A DNA stretch of 47,574 nucleotides from Escherichia phage RobRod40. Below, in pieces: positions 28,531 to 43,886 of the stretch. Each line of letters opens with the position of its first letter. Within the stretch, counting starts at the first letter, position 1. The stretch is from sequence record OR896835.1; one strand, 5' to 3'. Under the pieces are notes generated by a model. The model worked only from the letters and a program-made list of their open reading frames with translations, had not been told where the DNA came from and ran no database searches. Made by a program: the position numbers and the translations under genes.

Positions 28531-29453
28531 TAGTCTAGTAATTCACTTGCCTTGTATATTCGCTTTCTTATGCCTGACTTGAAAAAATTATCATCATTTG
28601 GTATTACAACATCAAGATTACGATCGTCAGCAACGGCAAGTAAATCAAAAGCGTGGCGAGTACAAGCGATGCGTAACTTGTAGTTTCTAAGCGCGTAAGC
28701 AACCATTTCCATGTTGTAGCAGGAGTGGCAAACAAGTACGCAGCGGTTGCCAGTAGCAAGATGAGCGCGAATACCATCAATCCAATTATCGACCAGATAA
28801 GCGTACTCATCATCCTTAAATGAACCAATAACAGAAACAGATTGGCGAGTATAATCTTTTGCAGCATAACTAACATTCCCCTCTTCATTGATAAACATTA
28901 CATTGCACATTTCTTCTGATATACCGTCACTATAAGCCATAAAGCACGGTACTGCGTGGATTAGTTCTCCTGACTTTGCCCTGCCAACATCAAAACCGAA
29001 CTCACTATAAATACCCTCGTATGTACTGAGCGGCGTTGATTCTACTCTTTCCGTCCTTTCCATTATCTCTAAGCATCTTTCGTGGTCAATCTGAGCGCCC
29101 ATTTTGTAGATCTGAGTTCTTGATGCTTGCTTGTTTGCTTTAACTATAACCTCAATTGGTGTTAAGTTCAGCCAGTCACCAAGCAAATTTACTGAATCGG
29201 CGAAGGACGATCCAGTGCACTTCATGACCCATCCTATACCGGAGTCACTTCCGCATTTCGAACAAACTGCCGCGCCATTTCCTTTTTCACTGCCTATTTC
29301 GTCGGTAAATCTGAATCTGTCAGTGCCAAAGCAGTATGGGCATGGTCCGTGCTTCTTACTTAGGTGCCTATCATTCCAACCAAGCTCCTTTGCATAAAAT
29401 GATTTCCACAATCCGGCCATCTTAGGTATAACTTCATTCTTATCGTAACTCAT
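28530..29453 (-). CDS. putative DNA primase (zinc-finger containing)
   Basis: CPYCFG...CSKCG zinc-binding motif near N-terminus; position in replication block. Confidence 0.5.
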   Translation of the reverse strand: MSYDKNEVIPKMAGLWKSFYAKELGWNDRHLSKKHGPCPYCFGTDRFRFTDEIGSEKGNGAAVCSKCGSDSGIGWVMKCTGSSFADSVNLLGDWLNLTPIEVIVKANKQASRTQIYKMGAQIDHERCLEIMERTERVESTPLSTYEGIYSEFGFDVGRAKSGELIHAVPCFMAYSDGISEEMCNVMFINEEGNVSYAAKDYTRQSVSVIGSFKDDEYAYLVDNWIDGIRAHLATGNRCVLVCHSCYNMEMVAYALRNYKLRIACTRHAFDLLAVADDRNLDVVIPNDDNFFKSGIRKRIYKASELLD

Positions 29454-29929
29454 TTGCTTAACCCGTGATTTTCGTGAAAGTTGTATTTTCTCTCTGCTTC
29501 AATTCTTACTTTATACGCCTGCTCTGGAGTATCGAAGTTCCCAAGGTGTAGCTGCTTACCGTCAACCTTGATGTGAGCCTTAAATTTTCCGTGATTTAGC
29601 TTTGCCACTCCACAATAACCAGTTGTTGATAAAACGCTAAGCTTGCAATTTCTTGAGTTACCTTGATTTGTTGTTACTCTTAGGTTTTCTATTCTGTTAT
29701 CTAATTTGTTATGGTTTATATGATCAATGTAGTCGCCATTTTGAAGTTCTCCATTAAACATCTCCCACACAACTCTATGTACATAAGTCCTAAAGCCATT
29801 AATAGACACTTTGTAATAGCCAGATGTAGATAGTGAGTTGCACTCATCGCCAACCTTAACACGTCTTGCAGTGCTAATCTTCCAATGCAATTTGCCATCT
29901 ACATAGTAAAAATAATCATGCCAGTTCAT
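29450..29929 (-). CDS. HNH homing endonuclease (paralog 3)
   Basis: MNWHDYFYYVDGKL, HRVVWEMFNG, IDHINHNKLDNRIENLR motifs; GGAGAG RBS. Confidence 0.85.
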   Translation of the reverse strand: MNWHDYFYYVDGKLHWKISTARRVKVGDECNSLSTSGYYKVSINGFRTYVHRVVWEMFNGELQNGDYIDHINHNKLDNRIENLRVTTNQGNSRNCKLSVLSTTGYCGVAKLNHGKFKAHIKVDGKQLHLGNFDTPEQAYKVRIEAERKYNFHENHGLSK

Positions 29930-32551: not shown

Positions 32552-32971
32552 ATGAAAATTACAGATAAGGTTGATTACATTGAGTTTTACCCAGGTCCTG
32601 TTAAGTCATGCCCTAAAGAGGATGACGAACAAATCTTTTGCTCTGATTGGGTTAAGTATAACTACCCAGAGATGGTATTTTTCCACTGCGTGAATGAGGG
32701 TAAGAAAACCATTGGACAAGCAAGAAAGGACCAGGCTAAAGGATTGCTTAAAGGGGTTTCGGACTGCTTATTCCTGATACCTGAATCTCTACGAGGCAAA
32801 TACCCTTTTGGAGCCATAGAGCTAAAGAGGGCCGGGAAGACCCAAGCTAGCCCAGTCAGTGGCGAGCAGAAGTCCTTCCTTAAAAGCGTGAGAGAGTCAG
32901 GTGGTTTTGCCGCAGTGGCCTACGGTCGTGAAGGTTTTCTGGCAGCATTCAAAGAAATGATTTCAAAATAG
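32552..32971 (+). CDS. VRR-NUC domain nuclease
   Basis: FHCVNEG, GVSDCLFL, GAIELKRAGK and Q..FL...G pattern matching the VRR-NUC PD-(D/E)XK layout. Confidence 0.7.
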   Translation: MKITDKVDYIEFYPGPVKSCPKEDDEQIFCSDWVKYNYPEMVFFHCVNEGKKTIGQARKDQAKGLLKGVSDCLFLIPESLRGKYPFGAIELKRAGKTQASPVSGEQKSFLKSVRESGGFAAVAYGREGFLAAFKEMISK

Positions 32972-33011
32972 CACGAATTGCTAAATACGAATCGGTGAGG
33001 TGGTGTATTAT
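32968..33011 (+). promoter_or_regulatory. conserved promoter-like module (ATAGCAC-gaa-TTGCTAAA, 22 bp, TATTAT)
   Basis: Palindrome GAGGTGgtgtattatCACCTC spans -10; leader CATCGAAACGAAAC. Confidence 0.6.
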
Positions 33012-33047
33012 CACCTCATCGAAACGAAACACAGAGAGAGAAACAAA

Positions 33048-33251
33048 ATGGCTACTATCTACACCACTAAGAAATACATTTCACGTAAAACTGGTTACGA
33101 GTATAACCTTGTTCTTGATGACTCGCTCGGCATGCTTCTCGCTGACGCTGAAGATGCTGAATACTGCTTTGAAGTTAGCCCGACTTACAAAGATGATTTA
33201 GAAACTGTTAAAAACGAATTTGGCGAAAAATTTGATGAGGTATCAGAATAA
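33048..33251 (+). CDS. hypothetical protein
   Basis: ATG 33048 after RBS AGAGAGAG and promoter-like module; track ORF 33000 start lacks RBS. Confidence 0.5.
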   Translation: MATIYTTKKYISRKTGYEYNLVLDDSLGMLLADAEDAEYCFEVSPTYKDDLETVKNEFGEKFDEVSE

Positions 33252-33472
33252 TGGCAGTTTTTACATTTGAGCACCAATGGGAAGTATTTAAGTTAATGGC
33301 AGTTGAGGAGTTAAATAAAGCTGGGTATAACAAAAACCCGTGGGACTTAGCATTTTGCCTGGACATGAGTTTTGAGCAGGATTACCTGAACACAGATATC
33401 GAAACATGGCGCGACCGTATGGTTGCTGATATCGAAGAAATGAAGAAAGATTGCCCTGAGGATTTCTTATGA
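33251..33472 (+). CDS. hypothetical protein
   Basis: 73-aa ORF, TAATG stop/start overlap. Confidence 0.5.
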   Translation: MAVFTFEHQWEVFKLMAVEELNKAGYNKNPWDLAFCLDMSFEQDYLNTDIETWRDRMVADIEEMKKDCPEDFL

Positions 33473-33666
33473 TCAACGAAAGGCCTTTTGTTGTTACATT
33501 TAAGCCAAGAAACAAACCCAGAATGGATATTGACGAATACTTACTAAAAAACGGAAATAGCTATTTTGTTCTTGAGATTTCGGCCGACTCGGATAGGTAC
33601 ATTGTTCGCAACGATGCTGGCATGGTTGTTAGCGTTTCAAAATTGGATGTGGAGATTGTGAGATGA
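33469..33666 (+). CDS. hypothetical protein
   Basis: 65-aa ORF, ATGA overlap with upstream gene. Confidence 0.5.
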   Translation: MINERPFVVTFKPRNKPRMDIDEYLLKNGNSYFVLEISADSDRYIVRNDAGMVVSVSKLDVEIVR

Positions 33667-33863
33667 TTACAGCAACCTGTGTAAAAACAAATGGCTCATT
33701 CACGCTGTTCAATGAGTACGAATTCAAACTTGATCCGATTAATGACCAGGTTGAAATAGTTAGCGATGACGGATTTGCATGGAAGTTACATAATGAATTT
33801 GATGGGTACTACGGGTGTAATGATGCGAAAGGCAAACATGTTAGCTTTCTGGTTTATGAATAG
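33663..33863 (+). CDS. hypothetical protein
   Basis: 66-aa ORF, ATGA overlap; stop followed by promoter-like module. Confidence 0.5.
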   Translation: MITATCVKTNGSFTLFNEYEFKLDPINDQVEIVSDDGFAWKLHNEFDGYYGCNDAKGKHVSFLVYE

Positions 33864-33907
33864 ATAGCACTTTTTGTTAAAACTAAAATCCACGGATGGA
33901 TTATATT
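33864..33907 (+). promoter_or_regulatory. conserved promoter-like module (ATAGCAC-ttt-TTGTTAAA, 22 bp, TATATT)
   Basis: Spacer palindrome ATCCAcggATGGAT; leader CATCAACAACG. Confidence 0.6.
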
Positions 33908-33937
33908 AAACACATCAACAACGCAGAGGGTTAAAAA

Positions 33938-34135
33938 ATGAAGGCAATTGTCGTTTACAACGCGAAAGGTCGCAATTACTTTACTGTTGGGAATATTTAC
34001 GATGTTTCACCAGCTTACCCTAAAGATGAAGAACAGTTATTATTTGATGTTACTGACGATGAAGGCGATCGTGTCTCAATAATAATTAGCGAATCTGCTG
34101 ATTGCGCTCATGGTTTCGTTTGGGAGCTTTTATAA
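33938..34135 (+). CDS. hypothetical protein
   Basis: 65-aa ORF, RBS AGAGGG. Confidence 0.5.
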   Translation: MKAIVVYNAKGRNYFTVGNIYDVSPAYPKDEEQLLFDVTDDEGDRVSIIISESADCAHGFVWELL

Positions 34136-34260
34136 TGAAAATTGTAGACAAAGAGATTTTTGAAATTGCACAGGCTTACGCAAAACAGGCTGTTAGGGAT
34201 AGTGACAATTATTGCTGGATGTGCGCTAAAGAATACCTGAAAATGGCTTACGGCTTATGA
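34135..34260 (+). CDS. small hypothetical protein (41 aa, CWMC motif)
   Basis: Below track cutoff; TAATG overlap upstream and ATGA overlap downstream suggest translational coupling. Confidence 0.35.
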   Translation: MKIVDKEIFEIAQAYAKQAVRDSDNYCWMCAKEYLKMAYGL

Positions 34261-34505
34261 TAGTTGAAACCGGACGCGCCGCAGTATGGGCGCATTGTGG
34301 AGAGGCGGGATTGCAGGAAGATATTAAGCAGATTTCTCGCTTCTTTGATATAAAAGATATCAGCGTTGTGTTCAATGGTAAGTTCTCTTACATGGGTGAG
34401 AGACCAAGAAAATACGTAAGAGTTAAGCCTGGTGTCAGTATTGATGTTAACGAGTTCCTTAAATCTGAGGGATTCAAGTTTAAGATAACGAAGCCTAAGG
34501 ATTGA
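34257..34505 (+). CDS. hypothetical protein
   Basis: 82-aa ORF in tightly packed early operon. Confidence 0.5.
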   Translation: MIVETGRAAVWAHCGEAGLQEDIKQISRFFDIKDISVVFNGKFSYMGERPRKYVRVKPGVSIDVNEFLKSEGFKFKITKPKD

Positions 34506-34507
34506 GC

Positions 34508-34759
34508 ATGTTGGGTTTAGATTTTCAGCAAGAGCATTACGATTTAGTACATGGACAAAGTGGAGCTAAGTTTAGAGCGATACCTATTGCTGACTGGCTC
34601 CCTCCTGACTATGTGGATGTGAACGCAAAAACTAAAGACGGGAAGTGGGTGCAGATTTACTATTCCCCAGCGTGTGGAAACCTTTGCATGACTGACCTTG
34701 AGAGAAAATTAGCAATTAGTGCGGAAGTGATCGACTACTGGTTGAAAGAAGTTGAATGA
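34508..34759 (+). CDS. hypothetical protein
   Basis: ATG 34508 after AAGGA (track start 34502 is TTG). Confidence 0.5.
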   Translation: MLGLDFQQEHYDLVHGQSGAKFRAIPIADWLPPDYVDVNAKTKDGKWVQIYYSPACGNLCMTDLERKLAISAEVIDYWLKEVE

Positions 34760-34842
34760 CGAGCCTAATACTAGTAGCATCGTTACCACTGTTCAGCTTT
34801 ACTATCTTATATTTTATCGCAATGAATTAAGGAACTTATATA

Positions 34843-35973
34843 ATGGCAACTGCAAAAATCACCAACGAACAATTGCGCGAAGAGCTTGCAAATGGGATGA
34901 CCAACAAAGCAATCGCAGAGAAGTATGGAATGAACATTCGCAACGTTGAATTACGTCGTAGTAAATTGGCTAAGAGTGGAGAATTGCACGGAAACCCTGG
35001 CATCAAGAAGTTAGTTCCAGATGGGTATATGGTTAAGGGAACTTCAACAATGATTGATGCGGATGGTAACGAAAAGATTCGCTGGGTCAAAACTTCTATA
35101 GATAATGAGCGCCTTGAGATTTTGATGGATCAGGCTCGTGAGGCATTCTGTTCTGATTTACCAAAAGCAGATGCGGTAATCCACTCAGGCAATGAGATTA
35201 ACTCTGAATTAATGACTCTTTACCCGATTTTCGATATCCATATTGGTATGATGGCTCATCGTCATGAATCTGGTGAGAATTATGACACGAACGCGGCAGA
35301 GAAATTAATGGGATCATATTTTGACCATGCAATTTCTGTATCACCTGCGTCAGAGAAAGCCGTGGTTTTAGTTGGTGGTGACTTCCTTCACTCTGACGGA
35401 TTGGAGGCTGTAACCCCAGCGAGCGGGCACTGCCTTGATCAGGATAGTCGGTATGCTAAGTTAGTTTATGTTGCGATTCGCTCAATTCGTGGTGCAGTAG
35501 AGAAGATGCTTAAGAAGCATAAGAATGTAGAGATTCAGATTATAGAGGGAAATCATGACCAAAGTGGTATGATTTGGCTTCGCGCGGCAATGGCTGCATT
35601 TTATGAAAATGAGAGTCGGGTGTTTGTTGATACCAGTCCGGCAATCATGCACAAAACACGATTTGGCTCAACACTACTTGGTTACACGCACGGTCACACG
35701 ATGAAGAAGGCTGAGGGTCGACTCGCAGCAATGGCGACAGACTACCGCAAAGACTTTGGTGAATGTGAGTTTGTTTACTGCCATTCCGGGCATTTTCACC
35801 ACGCAACTGTCACGGAGTGCACGCTTGGCATTGATGAAGTTCACCCAGCGCTGGCTAGTAAGGATGCGTATGCGGCCCGTGGAGGTTGGCGCTCATATCG
35901 TCAAGCGGCTGCAATAATCTATCACAAGGAGTTTGGCGAGGTTGGTCGCCACATTTATCGCCCAGGTATGTAA
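34843..35973 (+). CDS. HTH domain + metallophosphoesterase fusion protein
   Basis: N-terminal HTH-like MTNKAIAEKYGMNIRNVELRRSKL; calcineurin-like motifs GDFLHSD, GNHD, GHTHGH. Confidence 0.6.
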   Translation: MATAKITNEQLREELANGMTNKAIAEKYGMNIRNVELRRSKLAKSGELHGNPGIKKLVPDGYMVKGTSTMIDADGNEKIRWVKTSIDNERLEILMDQAREAFCSDLPKADAVIHSGNEINSELMTLYPIFDIHIGMMAHRHESGENYDTNAAEKLMGSYFDHAISVSPASEKAVVLVGGDFLHSDGLEAVTPASGHCLDQDSRYAKLVYVAIRSIRGAVEKMLKKHKNVEIQIIEGNHDQSGMIWLRAAMAAFYENESRVFVDTSPAIMHKTRFGSTLLGYTHGHTMKKAEGRLAAMATDYRKDFGECEFVYCHSGHFHHATVTECTLGIDEVHPALASKDAYAARGGWRSYRQAAAIIYHKEFGEVGRHIYRPGM

Positions 35974-37785: not shown

Positions 37786-39369
37786 TCACCCCAACAGTCG
37801 TGGATTAATGTAAACTTTATCACCAATCAGGCACGTATAGTTTTTCTCATCAAGCATTGGCAGTAAGTGATCTTTAATCTTTGTCATTACACCAGCCTGA
37901 GCCTCAAACGGCTTAACCTTTCGAGCCGCCTCATACAATGAACGAATACCAACTACACCTTTCCCGTTCTTGCCTTGCTTGATCAGTATATCAACCAGCT
38001 TGCTCATCTCAGCATGGTCGCCAGCGTGACCAGCAGCGTTAGCTGATGACAGATAAGTCTTACTCAGTTCCTGGAACATAATTACAGCCTCTTGCATGGT
38101 GTCGAGCTCGATCTCTCTGGACTTCTGTGGACTACCGCCATTTGGGCTGAACCAGTTGCGCACAGTGTGAAGAACAGCTGCAATCCTGATGGCCTGCTTA
38201 TCGAACTTACCCAACGCGCCACGTAACATTGTGTGTGAATACTTCCCGCCATCTGCAAGGTGAGGCTCCATCTCCTGACGCGCACGGTTTAGGTATTTCA
38301 TCGCTGAGTTGCTCACTGTCAGCTTAACATCTTGCTCATTCATTATTTCATGAACTAAAAGGAAGTAATCTGCCTTCAGCCCGCTATTAATTGGTTCGTA
38401 TGTTGAGTTGCCATTCTCATCAACGAATACGCGCTCACCAAGGAATGATTTTTCACGAACCAAAAGGAAGCGTTCAGATACACCGATACCGCGCGCACCA
38501 GCATTCATGATGGCGTTGATTGTTTCATCCTGCGCAATTACAGAGATGCAACCCATAGCAACGAAACTCATGTTATTTTCTGCGTTGGCACGCGCAATGG
38601 ATACGCTACCAGCGTCCCACGCTTTCAGTACAAGTTCGCTGTTCGTTTTCTTCGAGCCATCACCGTAAGTCATGCCAAGAAGTGAGTTGACGCTCGTTGC
38701 CTCATCCGAAATTACCGCAAAGTTGCCCTGGCGGTTGTTTATTCGCGCAAGACCTTCAGGCGTGGTATCTGATACTGGAAATACGATATCACACAGCTTC
38801 TCGAGTTTCTCCTCTAACTCCTCTTTCTCCTCAAAAAGAGAAGCCATCTCAGAGGGTGACTTTTCCTGCTTCATCTCTTTGGACAATGCAGATAGTTTGG
38901 CCATGATCTTTTTGCGCTCACGCTTTCGCACCTCATTCAGTCGCTCATTCTCAGAAATCATCGGAGCAAGGGCTAGTGAGTTGATGGCCGATTTACCCGT
39001 AGATGGTGGCTGACTGGTTACGACATATAGCGACGTTGGCTGCTGTGTGCCGTGATACTCGACAGTAAAGCGCCCAAGCATGGCAGCGGAAATACACCCC
39101 AGGAAGTGCATATAAGCTGAAGATTCGGGAAATTGAACAGAGCGAGCAATGTTAGCTGACAGTTTGCCAACAACATCAACATCATTACCGAGTGAGATTA
39201 CGGGATACTTGTCATTAGCAGCATCAATCTCTACTGGCGCTTTCCAGAATGATTGAGACTGTCGATAGCCATTGGCATTAATAGCCACTCGCAGAGGTGG
39301 AAGGTTGTCTGCGGCAGCAATTGCCATAACCTGCTCAACAGATAGTTTATCTTCGTTGAAATCAAACAT
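37786..39369 (-). CDS. P-loop containing protein (long paralog of 42539..43063)
   Basis: 527 aa; Walker A-like QPPSTGKS; N-terminal ~40 aa and C-terminal ~65 aa align with the 174-aa + strand protein; extended -10 promoter and GGAGAG RBS. Confidence 0.6.
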   Translation of the reverse strand: MFDFNEDKLSVEQVMAIAAADNLPPLRVAINANGYRQSQSFWKAPVEIDAANDKYPVISLGNDVDVVGKLSANIARSVQFPESSAYMHFLGCISAAMLGRFTVEYHGTQQPTSLYVVTSQPPSTGKSAINSLALAPMISENERLNEVRKRERKKIMAKLSALSKEMKQEKSPSEMASLFEEKEELEEKLEKLCDIVFPVSDTTPEGLARINNRQGNFAVISDEATSVNSLLGMTYGDGSKKTNSELVLKAWDAGSVSIARANAENNMSFVAMGCISVIAQDETINAIMNAGARGIGVSERFLLVREKSFLGERVFVDENGNSTYEPINSGLKADYFLLVHEIMNEQDVKLTVSNSAMKYLNRARQEMEPHLADGGKYSHTMLRGALGKFDKQAIRIAAVLHTVRNWFSPNGGSPQKSREIELDTMQEAVIMFQELSKTYLSSANAAGHAGDHAEMSKLVDILIKQGKNGKGVVGIRSLYEAARKVKPFEAQAGVMTKIKDHLLPMLDEKNYTCLIGDKVYINPRLLG

Positions 39370-39399
39370 TATTTCTCTCCGTGTTGTTTCTGAGCGGAC

Positions 39400-39443
39400 A
39401 TTATATCAACGACCGCTTTTAATTCATTATCAATTTGTGCTAT
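39400..39443 (-). promoter_or_regulatory. conserved promoter-like module on minus strand (ATAGCAC-aaa-TTGATAAT, 22 bp, TGaTATAAT)
   Basis: Extended -10 TGnTATAAT; precedes 527-aa P-loop gene. Confidence 0.6.
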
Positions 39444-39794
39444 TTAAATGTATTGCACCTCGAAATGGTAAGTCTGGCAAAGAGTGTAAAATCCAACATC
39501 CTCGCTACGGTAAAGCTGCCAAGCGTTGCCATCTTCATCGTAAATGTAACCCGCAGATTGACCAAGACCAGCATGAAGATTAACTTGATATCGCTTTCCT
39601 TCTTTGAAGTCTTTTTTAACTCCTGACTTGTGGTTAACCTTCGTACAGTAAATCGTCTTCGTCTTGATGTACCTACCGCGTTCTTCCAGGTTAACCCATT
39701 TACCATCTTTCTTGATTTGCTCTACACCGTCTTTAACACGAGCTTTGTATAATACGTTTTCGTTGCTAATGAAGTTTTTAGTTGTTGCTGTCAT
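39444..39794 (-). CDS. hypothetical protein
   Basis: 116-aa ORF with its own promoter-like module. Confidence 0.5.
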   Translation of the reverse strand: MTATTKNFISNENVLYKARVKDGVEQIKKDGKWVNLEERGRYIKTKTIYCTKVNHKSGVKKDFKEGKRYQVNLHAGLGQSAGYIYDEDGNAWQLYRSEDVGFYTLCQTYHFEVQYI

Positions 39795-39830
39795 TTTGAT
39801 TTCCTTTGCGTGCTTCGTTTCGATGAGATG

Positions 39831-39874
39831 AATATACAGGAAAAGCCCCGAAGGGCTTTAGCAATTAGTGCTAT
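39831..39874 (-). promoter_or_regulatory. conserved promoter-like module on minus strand (ATAGCAC-taa-TTGCTAAA, 22 bp, TATATT)
   Basis: Terminator hairpin sits inside the 22-bp spacer; leader CATCTCATCGAAACGAAG. Confidence 0.6.
39840..39858 (-). terminator. terminator-like hairpin embedded in a promoter-module spacer (minus strand)
   Basis: Minus-strand AGCCC-ttcg-GGGCT then TTTT, lying between the TTGCTAAA motif and the -10-like hexamer. Confidence 0.5.
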
Positions 39875-39875
39875 T

Positions 39876-40550
39876 TTAGCTGTTGGCGAGGTATACAGCA
39901 CGGGCGAACCCGCGCGGGGTTAGAGAGCGCAACTGCTTAGTCTTAGCAGACTTCCCGCCGAGGTACTTCCATCCCCAAAAGAAACCGATGTTAATCGGCC
40001 CGTGATTCTTCACTGGCTCAACGAATCCGTTGCCATGCCAGATGCAAGTTTTCTTGGTGTAGCCGTCGTATTTTGGCATTTTTTCGTGGTATGGCAGATC
40101 ATGAGCATTCATTAGCCCGCCGTACTCATACGGGTTGAAATAGAAATCAGGCTTACGCCACATGCTTGACAGCTTGCCTACCGGGTTTTCAACCATCCAT
40201 GGAGCCTGGAAGTAATTACCAACCTCTTCGACGAGCTTAGCATTATCCAGTGCATACGCCAGTTCATCTTCCCCGCGCTCATGCTGTGATCCTGACTGAG
40301 AGAACAGTGTGCAATCAGGAAATCCGATAACCATTTGCGCCGGAGGCAGGCCAAGTAATTCACACTTAGTGATGAAATCTTTGTCTATCCACATGTTGAT
40401 GTAGTGAATATTCTCATGCTGCATCTTGATTTGATATTCGCCATGATTACCAGAATCCGCGTTGAAACAGTAGACGGTGTGACCATTCTCAGCCCATGGC
40501 AGGCCAGCGATACCTGAACCATCAAACAGACAGTAAATTACCTTTTTCAT
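39876..40550 (-). CDS. putative compact DNA (cytosine-5) methyltransferase-like protein
   Basis: Motif I-like LFDGSGIAG, motif IV-like GFPDCTLFSQSG, motif VI-like ENPVG, C-terminal RSLTPRGFARA; unusually short at 224 aa. Confidence 0.4.
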   Translation of the reverse strand: MKKVIYCLFDGSGIAGLPWAENGHTVYCFNADSGNHGEYQIKMQHENIHYINMWIDKDFITKCELLGLPPAQMVIGFPDCTLFSQSGSQHERGEDELAYALDNAKLVEEVGNYFQAPWMVENPVGKLSSMWRKPDFYFNPYEYGGLMNAHDLPYHEKMPKYDGYTKKTCIWHGNGFVEPVKNHGPINIGFFWGWKYLGGKSAKTKQLRSLTPRGFARAVYLANS

Positions 40551-40699
40551 TTCTTCTTTGCCTTCTCAATTGCTTTTTGGATGATATTGAAGCTCTCAAT
40601 CAAATCTTCTTTAAAGTAGTCACCAACAGGCCAACCTTTGCAGCTGTATTTGGCTATGGTTTCTAGATCGTAATAGTTCAAGTCAGATGGTTTAAGCAT
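40547..40699 (-). CDS. small hypothetical protein (50 aa)
   Basis: Below track cutoff; TAATG and ATGA overlaps with neighbours. Confidence 0.35.
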   Translation of the reverse strand: MLKPSDLNYYDLETIAKYSCKGWPVGDYFKEDLIESFNIIQKAIEKAKKK

Positions 40700-40938
40700 T
40701 ACTTCACCTCGTCAAAAGTTGCGATGCCAGGGATAAACATACCAACCTTCCAACCAGCGATAGCAACCCACCCAGAATCGTGCTTGTGCGGTCGCTCGGC
40801 GCCATTAATCAACCACTCGTTCGGGATTACCTTCCCGTTAATAATTAGCGACTCAGCGTCGTATAAGGAGCCTTTTACGAATGGAGTAAGAGCCTTCTTG
40901 TCGGTGCTGGTGATGCAATTAGTGCAGCGAATTTTCAT
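40699..40938 (-). CDS. hypothetical protein
   Basis: 79-aa ORF in minus-strand operon. Confidence 0.5.
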   Translation of the reverse strand: MKIRCTNCITSTDKKALTPFVKGSLYDAESLIINGKVIPNEWLINGAERPHKHDSGWVAIAGWKVGMFIPGIATFDEVK

Positions 40939-40948
40939 ATCTCAATTC

Positions 40949-41128
40949 TCAAATAAATGGTAAACATTCGACGCAGCCAAGACCATCGCAGCACAGGAAT
41001 TCATCCTCTGACTGGAATTGCTTAGCCAAATCAATATCCAACCTTCCGCGCACTACAAGTTCGGTGTAATCTTCGTTAAGCCCAATCAGTGCGCATTCGT
41101 GACGTAACTCATCTTTGCTGTTCATCAT
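40949..41128 (-). CDS. small Cys-rich hypothetical protein (59 aa)
   Basis: C-terminal CCDGLGCVEC cluster; ATGA overlap with upstream small ORF. Confidence 0.35.
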   Translation of the reverse strand: MMNSKDELRHECALIGLNEDYTELVVRGRLDIDLAKQFQSEDEFLCCDGLGCVECLPFI

Positions 41129-41304
41129 TTTTGCAACTCCGCTTCGTAGTATTCGTATGAATTGAACTTATCGATTTCGTTCATCTTCTCGCAAACCTGC
41201 TCTGCCATCTGCTCACTTAGGCATACGCAGTGGACGGCTGTGTCGTAATCCGGATCACGCGGTTCAGAAATCACGACGTAGCAATACATTTTTACAGTGC
41301 TCAT
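41125..41304 (-). CDS. small hypothetical protein (59 aa)
   Basis: First ORF of minus-strand operon; RBS GGAGAAAA; ~40 bp downstream of promoter-like module. Confidence 0.35.
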   Translation of the reverse strand: MSTVKMYCYVVISEPRDPDYDTAVHCVCLSEQMAEQVCEKMNEIDKFNSYEYYEAELQK

Positions 41305-41345
41305 TTATTTTCTCCAGTTCTCTTCACTCATTTCGATGAGCTAAC

Positions 41346-41389
41346 TATATCCTCCCCGACTGATAATGTCTTTAACAAAAAGTGCTATT
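41346..41389 (-). promoter_or_regulatory. promoter-like module on minus strand (ATAGCAC-ttt-TTGTTAAA, ~22-23 bp, TATAGT-like)
   Basis: Leader TAGCTCATCGAAATGAG; adjacent to inverted-repeat operator array; precedes minus-strand operon. Confidence 0.5.
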
Positions 41390-41407
41390 CGTTGGATTTA
41401 CGTATTG

Positions 41408-41470
41408 TTGCAGATATTGCAATGATTCACATGATTATTGCACATAAAGCAATATTGCTTCAGATGCAAT
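41408..41470. promoter_or_regulatory. inverted-repeat operator-like array
   Basis: TTGCA-N5-TGCAA (41408-41422) and two abutting ATTGC-N7-GCAAT sites (41437-41453, 41454-41470) just upstream of minus-strand promoter module. Confidence 0.4.
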
Positions 41471-41630
41471 GATGTTTTTGATTGTTGCGAAAATTGAAAT
41501 GAAGTGGTGAGTGAGTGAATGAAAGATGGATGGACTACCATACAAGTTGATTTTTATTCTGGCTGAGCCATTTTCATGCTTACGCGTAAACGAAATAACT
41601 AGCTGTATGCCATTTGCGTCCGCGGGAAAT

Positions 41631-41660
41631 CGTATACGCATGATACGCAGCGATACGCAC
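41631..41660. repeat. iteron-like direct repeats (3 x ATACGC at ~10-bp period)
   Basis: cgtATACGCa / tgATACGCag / cgATACGCac. Confidence 0.5.
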
Positions 41661-41728
41661 TAGTTACATTAAAACATCCTTATATAACAACCATTTATCT
41701 ATATTATTATTATTATTATATATATATG
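41661..41728. repeat. AT-rich module CTAGTTACATTAAAAC...(TAT)6(AT)n, copy 2
   Basis: Homologous to 23345-23405; (TAT)6 at 41702-41719. Confidence 0.6.
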
Positions 41729-41947
41729 TATGCTATGTAAGCCATGTCATATGGTGAAGTTGATATATTTCTATGATTTATTCCTACACATGTAGGAATG
41801 AGACTACTTTGTAGGAATGAAAAGGCATATATAGGCATGAATCTCCAAAAAGTTGGCATACATGGCACACGCAGCCATTTACACCAGTCATGTCGAGCAC
41901 TATTCCCAAATAAACGTAGGCAATCGCCATTGATACACAAATTAACG

Positions 41948-41976
41948 TTGACTTACAGGTTAACCATCAATATAAT
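41948..41976 (+). promoter_or_regulatory. near-consensus sigma70-type promoter (TTGACT-17-TATAAT)
   Basis: Canonical hexamers and spacing upstream of 42015 operon; followed by ATCATCGAAACAACAAACGA leader. Confidence 0.6.
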
Positions 41977-42014
41977 GACAATCATCGAAACAACAAACGA
42001 AAAGAGGATATACA

Positions 42015-42539
42015 ATGAGCGTTAAAACATTGGGTGCAGTTATTCGATATATGATTGACCAGGCGATTGAGTCTGAAGATAAGTCATTCACAGTACGGCT
42101 TCGTGATATCGCAAGAGCGACAACGGGAATAAACCCAAAATCATTAAGTGATGATGAGATAGTTGAGTTCGAAAAGGTCAAGGGCCTTAAAAGTTCATAC
42201 ATTTATAATACAGCCTCCAGGGTTCAGCGATTGCAGGAACTAAACCTCAGGGCAAAATATGAGATGGTATTCGTCAATGAAGATGGCGAAATACAAAGTG
42301 GCTCTTCTGTTGTCGACGGGCTTGGTTACAGAGCAATGCGAATCTTCCTTGTTGAGGGTGCTGTGAAGCCAGTTTGCCGAGCAAGGGCCGACTCAGAGAA
42401 CGAGGCTATGGCGGTTGAAAGATTCAAGTCCAGGCTTCTTAAGCTTTCACCAAGCGTTGCCGGCCTGGAAGGTGATGAACTTAAGGGCGCTGTGGCAATG
42501 ATTAACGCCTATCAGGAAATGATTAAGGAGACCAAATAA
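42015..42539 (+). CDS. hypothetical protein (first gene of + operon beside iteron region)
   Basis: 174-aa ORF immediately downstream of near-consensus sigma70 promoter and AT-rich iteron module. Confidence 0.55.
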   Translation: MSVKTLGAVIRYMIDQAIESEDKSFTVRLRDIARATTGINPKSLSDDEIVEFEKVKGLKSSYIYNTASRVQRLQELNLRAKYEMVFVNEDGEIQSGSSVVDGLGYRAMRIFLVEGAVKPVCRARADSENEAMAVERFKSRLLKLSPSVAGLEGDELKGAVAMINAYQEMIKETK

Positions 42540-43063
42540 TGTTTGATTTTACCGAAGAGAGGCTGACAGATGAGCAGATTATGGGTATTGCGAAGCAGGA
42601 TGGGATTCCCCCGATACGGGTTGCAATCAATGCTAACGGGTATCGGCATGTTCAGCACCTCTGGGGTCAGCCTGATTCATCTGAAGTATACATAGATGAA
42701 GATCTTGGCGTTCTGATTAAGTTGCTCAGGAAAATGGCAAGGAACGGAAAGGGAGTATTGGGGGTGAGGTCTTTATACGAAACCGCGCGCAAGGTTAAGC
42801 CATTTGAGGGTCGCAATGGAATCATGGCGTGCATTAAGGATGAACTAATCCCCGCTCTAGAGGAAATGAATCTCGCTTGCCTCATTGGAGATAAGATTTA
42901 TGTCCACCCGGCTATCATTGATGAGTATTGGCAGCCTAACTTCAAAACTTACGAAGCTGAGCACGTTAGTAGACTACCATACCACTTACGGTACAGTGAG
43001 GAGGAGGTGGAGAGAACGATGGAGTTCTACCGGAAAGCTAAATCACTTCTGAACGGTGAATAG
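42539..43063 (+). CDS. short paralog of the 527-aa P-loop protein (lacks central domain)
   Basis: MFDFTEERLTDEQIMGIAKQDGIPPIRVAINANGYR and NGKGVLGVRSLYETARKVKPFEG segments match N- and C-terminal segments of 37786..39369. Confidence 0.6.
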   Translation: MFDFTEERLTDEQIMGIAKQDGIPPIRVAINANGYRHVQHLWGQPDSSEVYIDEDLGVLIKLLRKMARNGKGVLGVRSLYETARKVKPFEGRNGIMACIKDELIPALEEMNLACLIGDKIYVHPAIIDEYWQPNFKTYEAEHVSRLPYHLRYSEEEVERTMEFYRKAKSLLNGE

Positions 43064-43142: not shown

Positions 43143-43886
43143 ATGAACAGATATGAGCCACGCATCTATCAGACACTATCAGGCTATTTTTCAGCCGCAA
43201 TGAGACGCCACTACAATGGAACGTACATCACCTACGAATCGCATAAGCAGGAAATTGAGTATCTACAGGCGCGTTTAAAGGCGTTAGAATCGAAGCAAAA
43301 AGACTCGATTTCAATCTCTTCAATTATTGCCGAGCACGTAGATGATGCGATTCGTAAATCCATTGGCGAGGCTGTTCACCAGGCAATTGATGAGATGTTC
43401 AAGGCTGAGTACAAATACAATGGCGATCCGTGCCATAGCGCAGTTGACTCAATCCTGGATGAGCTGGCTGTCGCCCCTGGTAAAACAGTTAAGGATGACA
43501 CCTATAGCGTCGCCGATGGATTGACGAAGAACGGTAAATTCACTTTCGGTAGTAATTTCGGTGAAGGAAAGGAGTTTACAATGCCAGTAGGCGAAACCGA
43601 ATCAGAGCATGGTCGCAAGGTGGCTGTTTGTTACTACGTTGCAGGCAATGCAAACGCATTCATCAAAGGCTGTGAGTATGAGTATGAAGTTGATGAATGT
43701 GAACCTGGGTGTGAGCCTCGAATCATTCATATCGTTCAAGATGCCTTCGTTTCTGATTTAAAATGTGAGCAACGATGGGATGCAAGAAAAGTCGGTGAAT
43801 TCAGGGATGCAAACGGCAAACTTGGTGACGCATACGTCATCGTTAAGCCTGGCGGCGGAGTTGTAGCTCAATTTTATATCAAATAG
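43143..43886 (+). CDS. hypothetical protein
   Basis: 247-aa ORF with promoter-like module upstream; Cys pairs near C-terminus. Confidence 0.55.
   Translation: MNRYEPRIYQTLSGYFSAAMRRHYNGTYITYESHKQEIEYLQARLKALESKQKDSISISSIIAEHVDDAIRKSIGEAVHQAIDEMFKAEYKYNGDPCHSAVDSILDELAVAPGKTVKDDTYSVADGLTKNGKFTFGSNFGEGKEFTMPVGETESEHGRKVAVCYYVAGNANAFIKGCEYEYEVDECEPGCEPRIIHIVQDAFVSDLKCEQRWDARKVGEFRDANGKLGDAYVIVKPGGGVVAQFYIK

Follow-up and report, generated by a model that had tools for sequence, protein, structure and literature searches.

Escherichia phage RobRod40 belongs to the T1-like siphoviruses (Drexlerviridae), and the window analysed here is the whole 47,574-nt stretch of its sequence. We looked at a minus-strand locus of this window in which a 224-aa open reading frame (ORF) is preceded by four small ORFs and followed by a hairpin. 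The genes and features of the locus, including the motifs that we recognised in the 224-aa protein, are listed below in the direction of reading.

41125-41304, minus strand: small ORF, 59 aa
40949-41128, minus strand: small ORF, 59 aa, PHROG 9053, ending in CCDGLGCVEC
40699-40938, minus strand: small ORF, 79 aa
40547-40699, minus strand: small ORF, 50 aa
39876-40550, minus strand: predicted gene of a compact Dcm-like DNA cytosine-C5 methyltransferase (224-aa ORF, ATG start)
40512-40526, minus strand: motif I, FDGSG, residues 9-13, putative SAM-binding loop (from conservation, coordinates checked)
40308-40322, minus strand: motif IV, FPDCT, residues 77-81, with the predicted nucleophile C80 (from conservation and alignment to C82 of K42/Bas06 Dcm)
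40179-40190, minus strand: motif VI, ENPV, residues 121-124, with E121 as the counterpart of the ENV glutamate
40047-40061, minus strand: motif VIII-like YTKKT, residues 164-168, with K166/K167 replacing the QxRxR arginines
39933-40046, minus strand: reduced variable (target-recognition) region, residues 169-206, with a presumed role in DNA recognition
39903-39932, minus strand: motif IX, LRSLTPRGFA, residues 207-216
39843-39858, minus strand: hairpin AAGCCC-UUCG-GGGCUU, 18 nt past the methyltransferase stop, with a moderately U-rich tail

An earlier note, made from the letters alone, had described motifs like those of C5-methyltransferases in the canonical order, with a candidate catalytic Cys. 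This description was confirmed: FDGSG, FPDCT, ENPV, YTKKT and LRSLTPRGFA follow one another at verified coordinates, and the candidate Cys is C80, invariant in both alignments of relatives. In the first of these, with 39 relatives of 57-95% identity, D10-G11-S12-G13, F77, P78, C80, T81, N122, P123, L207, R208, S209 and T211 were invariant, and E121 and V124 were at least 90% conserved. Among 89 relatives of 29-54% identity, C80, E121, P123, Y164, K166 and T168 were still invariant. Judged by this conservation, the motif strings are more than a product of chance. Motif VI keeps its Glu and Asn but has Pro for Val throughout the family (ENP versus ENV). The QxRxR of motif VIII was not found; instead, YTKKT stands 43 aa past motif VI, with Lys for Arg. 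A large target-recognition domain (TRD) was not found between motifs VIII and IX either, where about 40 aa are left, and within these W192, W194, G198, G199, T204 and K205 are conserved in the 39 close relatives. In the catalytic core, the motifs are spaced as in E. coli Dcm, whereas the variable region is much shorter.

Motif I to motif IV: 71 aa in RobRod40, 84 aa in E. coli Dcm
Motif IV to motif VI: 41 aa in RobRod40, 47 aa in E. coli Dcm
Motif VI to motif VIII: 43 aa in RobRod40, 50 aa in E. coli Dcm
Motif VIII to motif IX (variable region): 40 aa in RobRod40, 122 aa in E. coli Dcm

In essence, the remark that the protein has no obvious TRD was correct: a catalytic domain makes up the protein, and its variable region is vestigial.

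Scanning Pfam and NCBIfam with the protein yielded no relevant match, which is why it looked odd, and these libraries alone therefore cannot place it. In the Pfam search, which the earlier note had proposed as a check, the RobRod40 protein itself did not match PF00145 at the gathering threshold, nor even at E<=10; the same profile was reached by only 7 of its 39 close relatives (best E 3.1e-6), as well as by 1 of the 89 divergent ones. When the protein sequence and two profiles of the family were run against PDB sequences with phmmer and hmmsearch, nothing significant was returned, the sole related match being DNMT2 (E=0.22), whose weak HMM alignment spans motifs I to IV. Likewise, when hhalign was run with the family profiles on E. 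coli Dcm as a single sequence, the probability remained below 2%; this match, although not significant, brought the right motifs together, FP(P)C facing FPCQ, ENP facing ENV and RSLTPRGFARA facing RRLTPRECARL. Because the profile and hhalign searches were not significant, the family was assigned by fold and orthology. An AlphaFold2 model of the protein was obtained with a pLDDT of 86.9 and a pTM of 0.87. Its one disordered segment covers residues 86-90, just past the catalytic Cys, and a mobile catalytic loop occupies the position after the catalytic Cys in classical C5-methyltransferases. The top 50 Foldseek matches of the model in the PDB were all DNA C5-methyltransferases (DNMT3A/3B, DNMT1 and M.HaeIII), with a probability of 1.00 and E-values down to 2e-8, and M.HhaI was matched as well. 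The model thus has the fold of a C5-methyltransferase catalytic domain and the RobRod40 protein is clearly a C5-methyltransferase at the structural level.

We also looked at how widely the protein is distributed. It matched PHROG 757, 'DNA methyltransferase', with E=5e-78 over residues 1-223, and gp68 of Shigella phage Sd1 is 96.9% identical to it. At least 1,900 homologous clusters at E<=0.001 were found among 1,981 candidates by a word-indexed search, the NCBI name of the homologous clusters being 'DNA cytosine methyltransferase', and an exhaustive profile search gave 1,821 representatives at 50% identity, 767 of them with E<=1e-10. By tblastn, the gene was present in 1,492 of 50,697 phage records; its carriers are phages of Escherichia, Klebsiella, Salmonella, Shigella and other hosts, among them Drexlerviridae, large myoviruses and others. 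The median length was 226 aa in the close clusters and 230 aa in the divergent representatives. Since nearly all members of PHROG 757 measure 200-260 aa, the 224 aa of this single-domain protein are normal, and truncation or decay into a pseudogene was ruled out as the cause of its shortness. The statement that the protein is far shorter than typical enzymes is correct with respect to classical ones (472 aa for E. coli Dcm) but not within its own family, and 'unusually small' had to be dropped, as it is an ordinary member with a near-identical annotated counterpart in a family carried by about 1,500 sequenced phages. These results indicate that the RobRod40 methyltransferase belongs, as an ordinary and previously annotated member, to a known family of compact phage enzymes that has been characterised in part.

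Then, the surroundings of the gene were studied. The methyltransferase region is most similar to that of phages CJ19, Sd1, ESCO41 and many Rogunavirinae. Downstream of the methyltransferase lie a 116-aa gene (PHROG 2684) and then a DUF3987 helicase gene, an arrangement found in 41-42 of 82 related loci. Upstream, the successive junctions from 41304 towards the methyltransferase are an ATGA overlap, a 10-nt gap, a TAATG overlap and an ATGA overlap, a packing that fits co-transcription together with translational coupling, as read from the sequence. The 50-, 79-, 59- and 59-aa ORFs correspond to PHROGs 4548, 4448, 9053 and 26486, all of unknown function, and two of the small ORFs have 5 Cys in 59 residues (including those of CCDGLGCVEC) and 4 in 59. 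The earlier picture of a minus-strand operon of the methyltransferase and four tiny ORFs, two of them Cys-rich, was therefore confirmed: the four precede the methyltransferase on the same strand, their junctions fit co-transcription, and two are moderately rich in Cys. A consensus scan of 39300-42100 found no terminator after the methyltransferase, the hairpin at 39843-39858 falling below its criteria, and it gave fewer promoter-like sites than shuffled sequence. On folding, this hairpin had a dG of -13.2 kcal/mol and a z of -2.46, and it is possibly a weak terminator. As the scan was without a terminator and folding gave only this weak hairpin, the boundaries of the transcription unit are putative. 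On its upstream side, an AT-rich divergent intergenic region of about 700 bp (41305-42014) separates the minus-strand methyltransferase unit from plus-strand genes; an (ATA)n run is found close to 41700-41725, and the best sigma-70-like site of the region lies at 41948-41976 on the plus strand with 11 of 12 matches.

The small ORFs had been proposed to include a separate specificity partner of the methyltransferase. Among 82 loci carrying the methyltransferase, the four small ORFs occur in 3, 5, 1 and 0. Conversely, three of them are retained in Rogunavirus AHP24 (88-95% identity), whose locus has no methyltransferase homologue and carries an unrelated 303-bp gene in the methyltransferase slot, and in many related phages, including AHP24, AHS24 and C119, the match to the query is confined to its small-ORF segment. 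With no co-occurrence of the small ORFs and the methyltransferase, and with the Dcm of phage K42, described below, working alone, there is no support for a separate specificity partner; the Cys-rich small ORFs were ruled out as such a partner on these two grounds. The methyltransferase gene is a mobile cassette in a variable early-gene region, and the small ORFs are just its neighbours. As for what they encode, the 59-aa ORF of PHROG 9053 at 40949-41128 (minus strand) is 88% conserved in AHP24, and in phage UDF157lw a 'Fer2_BFD domain-containing protein' annotation is found among the features under the small-ORF-segment match. This annotation hints that the product of the ORF ending in CCDGLGCVEC is a small metal-binding protein with a Cys cluster and has no relation to the methyltransferase.

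Several other features of the window were observed. A homing-type endonuclease gene (HNH_3, E=3.7e-18) lies at 29450-29929 on the minus strand, between a primase-like gene and a Cro-like regulator, and an annotated HNH endonuclease adjoins the methyltransferase homologue in phages JLBYU07 and vB_EcoM_50EP. Across the divergent intergenic region, a 174-aa ORF (42539-43063, plus strand; PHROG 7327, E=2.4e-76) resembles a 'mini-paralogue' of the DUF3987 helicase (527 aa; 37786-39369, minus strand): it shares the first approximately 48 aa (MFDF...RVAINANGYR) and the last approximately 65 aa of the helicase without any of the ATPase core, on the opposite strand, and the same pair is present in AHP24 and CJ19. 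Next to it, a 247-aa ORF (43143-43886, plus strand) has no PHROG match (E<=1e-5) and no Pfam match (E<=1e-3), which is unusual at such a size in a well-sampled phage group.

Two orthologues of the methyltransferase come with experimental data. In the Drexlerviridae phage K42, which is 95.4% identical to BASEL phage Bas06 KarlJaspers, a 711-bp dcm gene is disrupted in all four mutants escaping retron Ec86, and Dcm is encoded by 34 of 35 Ec86-sensitive phages (Wang et al., bioRxiv 10.1101/2023.08.16.553469, published as Cell Rep 2024;43:114857). When K42 Dcm was produced alone from a plasmid, it was toxic only in the presence of Ec86; it raised 5mC in the msDNA of Ec86 as measured by LC-MS, and a C82A/E128A/K175A/K176A mutant was inactive, single mutants not being reported (bioRxiv 10.1101/2023.08.16.553469). 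We found that the Dcm of Bas06 and the RobRod40 methyltransferase are 43% identical over their full length (E=5e-65), and that C80, E121, K166 and K167 align to, and are identical with, C82, E128, K175 and K176 of K42/Bas06. The second orthologue, gp52 of Pantoea phage vB_PagS_AAS23 (235 aa), is 46% identical to the RobRod40 methyltransferase (E=1e-71). This protein, too, had no domain at BLAST level and was assigned by HHpred (99.7%) to the Shigella C5-methyltransferase 3ME5, and AAS23 virion DNA was reported to be Dcm-methylated from restriction digests including EcoRII (PMC8004638), a methylation that a host enzyme may also have made. More generally, Drexlerviridae abundantly encode C5-cytosine methyltransferases, and no simple correlation was seen between these genes and resistance to restriction (BASEL paper). 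In RobRod40, a second methyltransferase of the Dam type was sought across the sequence and none was found; the (D/N/S)PP(Y/F/W/H) motif is absent from all ORFs of at least 80 aa. In AAS23, a Dam adenine methyltransferase gene follows that of a VRR-NUC nuclease; it is absent from RobRod40 at 32552-34843, where the VRR-NUC gene (32552-32971) is followed only by small ORFs of 52-85 aa.

With a probability of about 0.85, we consider that the RobRod40 gene encodes a stand-alone (orphan) SAM-dependent, compact Dcm-like C5-methyltransferase, most likely acting on CCWGG. The ORF, the motif conservation, the fold and the orthology were shown here by computation; the activity, specificity and anti-restriction role of this protein and the roles of its residues are inferred. 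The enzyme, probably expressed last in the small-ORF transcription unit, would bind SAM through FDGSG. C80 of FPDCT would attack C6 of a flipped-out cytosine and E121 of ENPV would protonate N3, while K166/K167 would take the place of the motif VIII arginines, and the variable region of about 40 aa, together with motif IX, would contact the DNA. Phage DNA, and host DNA as well, would be methylated, most likely at the Dcm-type site CCWGG, and this would protect it against restriction enzymes blocked by this methylation without making targets for McrBC. As a side effect, the phage would become detectable by retron Ec86 (Eco1), which senses msDNA methylation. Anti-restriction DNA modification, as the earlier note had proposed, is the standard reading for this compact phage Dcm-like family and is the probable role here. 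The 47,574-nt sequence contains 78 CCWGG sites, a count reached in only 1 of 100 dinucleotide shuffles (expectation, 62.8 +/- 7.1), so that the site is mildly over-represented and not avoided; this is compatible with protection and is not evidence for it.

The enzyme could also be an active C5-methyltransferase with a specificity other or looser than CCWGG, a possibility that we consider unlikely; given its variable region of only about 40 aa and an Asp in motif IV, the clade of this protein might read a shorter or different site or prefer hairpin or single-stranded DNA. For the site of the family members, the evidence is indirect; identity to the studied orthologues is 43-46% and the variable regions differ; and the closest folds, DNMT3A/B, have short TRDs and a 2-bp site. 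MG1655, the background in which an msDNA motif was mutated, is presumably dcm+. For K42 Dcm, CCWGG was taken over as the site from the host Dcm, and the mutation of this msDNA motif was its only test (bioRxiv 10.1101/2023.08.16.553469). Against a different site, mutating the CCTGG of msDNA abolished the defence against K42, and the AAS23 virion DNA was reported as Dcm-methylated on digests including EcoRII. In addition, a relaxed specificity would produce R-5mC sites, which are cut by McrBC in E. coli K-12, and according to the host list of the tblastn records many phages carrying the family are propagated on this host.

A further doubt concerns motif IV itself. The residue before C80 is Asp (FPDCT), at the place where the canonical Pro-Cys has Pro, while the Cys is invariant. 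Among the 120 closest clusters, 93 have FPDC, 15 FPSC and 10 FPPC; FPPC, the family consensus, is found in 93 of 150 divergent representatives and in both experimentally supported orthologues, and in the family as a whole this position can be D, S, P, E, V, Q or T. A search of the literature on the FPDC clade, Webervirus and Sd1 returned no direct methylome or activity data. The Asp in place of Pro, the variability of its position and the lack of published activity for the FPDC clade could be taken to mean that the fold has been catalytically impaired or repurposed, leaving a DNA- or SAM-binding protein such as a decoy or a regulator; we find this highly improbable, since C80, E121, K166, DGSG and motif IX show little or no variation within the FPDC clade, as expected of a working active site, the FPDC, FPSC and FPPC forms occur mixed among proteins of 55-95% identity, and mutants of the EcoRII methyltransferase with Pro changed to Ala or Ser in the Pro-Cys motif reportedly keep a reduced activity. 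Because the remainder of the active site does not vary in this clade, the RobRod40 methyltransferase was judged, on its sequence, to be active. The earlier suggestion of a methyltransferase-derived protein with a new function was accordingly abandoned, all catalytic residues being conserved and an orthologue making 5mC. It is a more tentative idea, and one that we rate as doubtful, that the FPDC subclade, with Asp for the near-universal Pro and a variable region of only about 40 aa, has a mode of recognition or a target undescribed for C5-methyltransferases (a non-CCWGG site, DNMT3-like dimerisation, or hairpin or single-stranded DNA such as msDNA). If this were true, its members would be among the smallest sequence-specific DNA C5-methyltransferases and would make a useful minimal scaffold.

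As a discovery, the gene carries little weight, being annotated in near-identical phages and belonging to a family of published function. A phage that carries it is nevertheless predicted to modify cytosines, with consequences for restriction mapping, sequencing and host range, and to be sensitive to Ec86/Eco1, a retron native to E. coli BL21. The questions that it raises are those of the whole family, namely how an enzyme of about 225 aa with a variable region of 40 aa reads its site and which sites are those of the motif IV variants.

Finally, the RobRod40 protein was compared with known systems. With the classical C5-methyltransferases (PF00145: Dcm, M.HhaI, M.HaeIII) and DNMT3A/3B, it shares the fold, the catalytic Cys and the ENV-type Glu and, with the classical enzymes, the motif order I-IV-VI-VIII-IX-X with near-identical core spacing. 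It differs from the classical enzymes in being about half their size and below Pfam thresholds, and in having ENP for ENV, YxKK for QxRxR and Asp for Pro before the Cys. AAS23 gp52 is, like the RobRod40 methyltransferase, syntenic with a DUF3987 helicase gene, but its motif IV is FPPCT and AAS23 also encodes Dam, whereas RobRod40 does not. The Dcm of K42/Bas06 belongs to the same family and length class (236 versus 224 aa), has the same catalytic C, E and KK, and its gene, also in a member of the Drexlerviridae, sits in the same slot, upstream of that for the DUF3987 helicase. It differs from the RobRod40 protein by FPPCT instead of FPDCT and by indels, which lie in the variable region and in the loop that follows motif IV. 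Other small genes precede it, and activity was shown for K42 Dcm only. The nearest counterpart is Sd1 gp68 (MF158042 / NC_047847), which GenBank calls 'putative cytosine DNA methylase' and RefSeq 'DNA methyltransferase', both predictive annotations only. While Sd1 is without homologues of the two 59-aa ORFs of RobRod40, the neighbourhood of its gene is otherwise the same, with small ORFs of 153 bp and 240 bp upstream and a gene of the 116-aa type and the helicase gene downstream.
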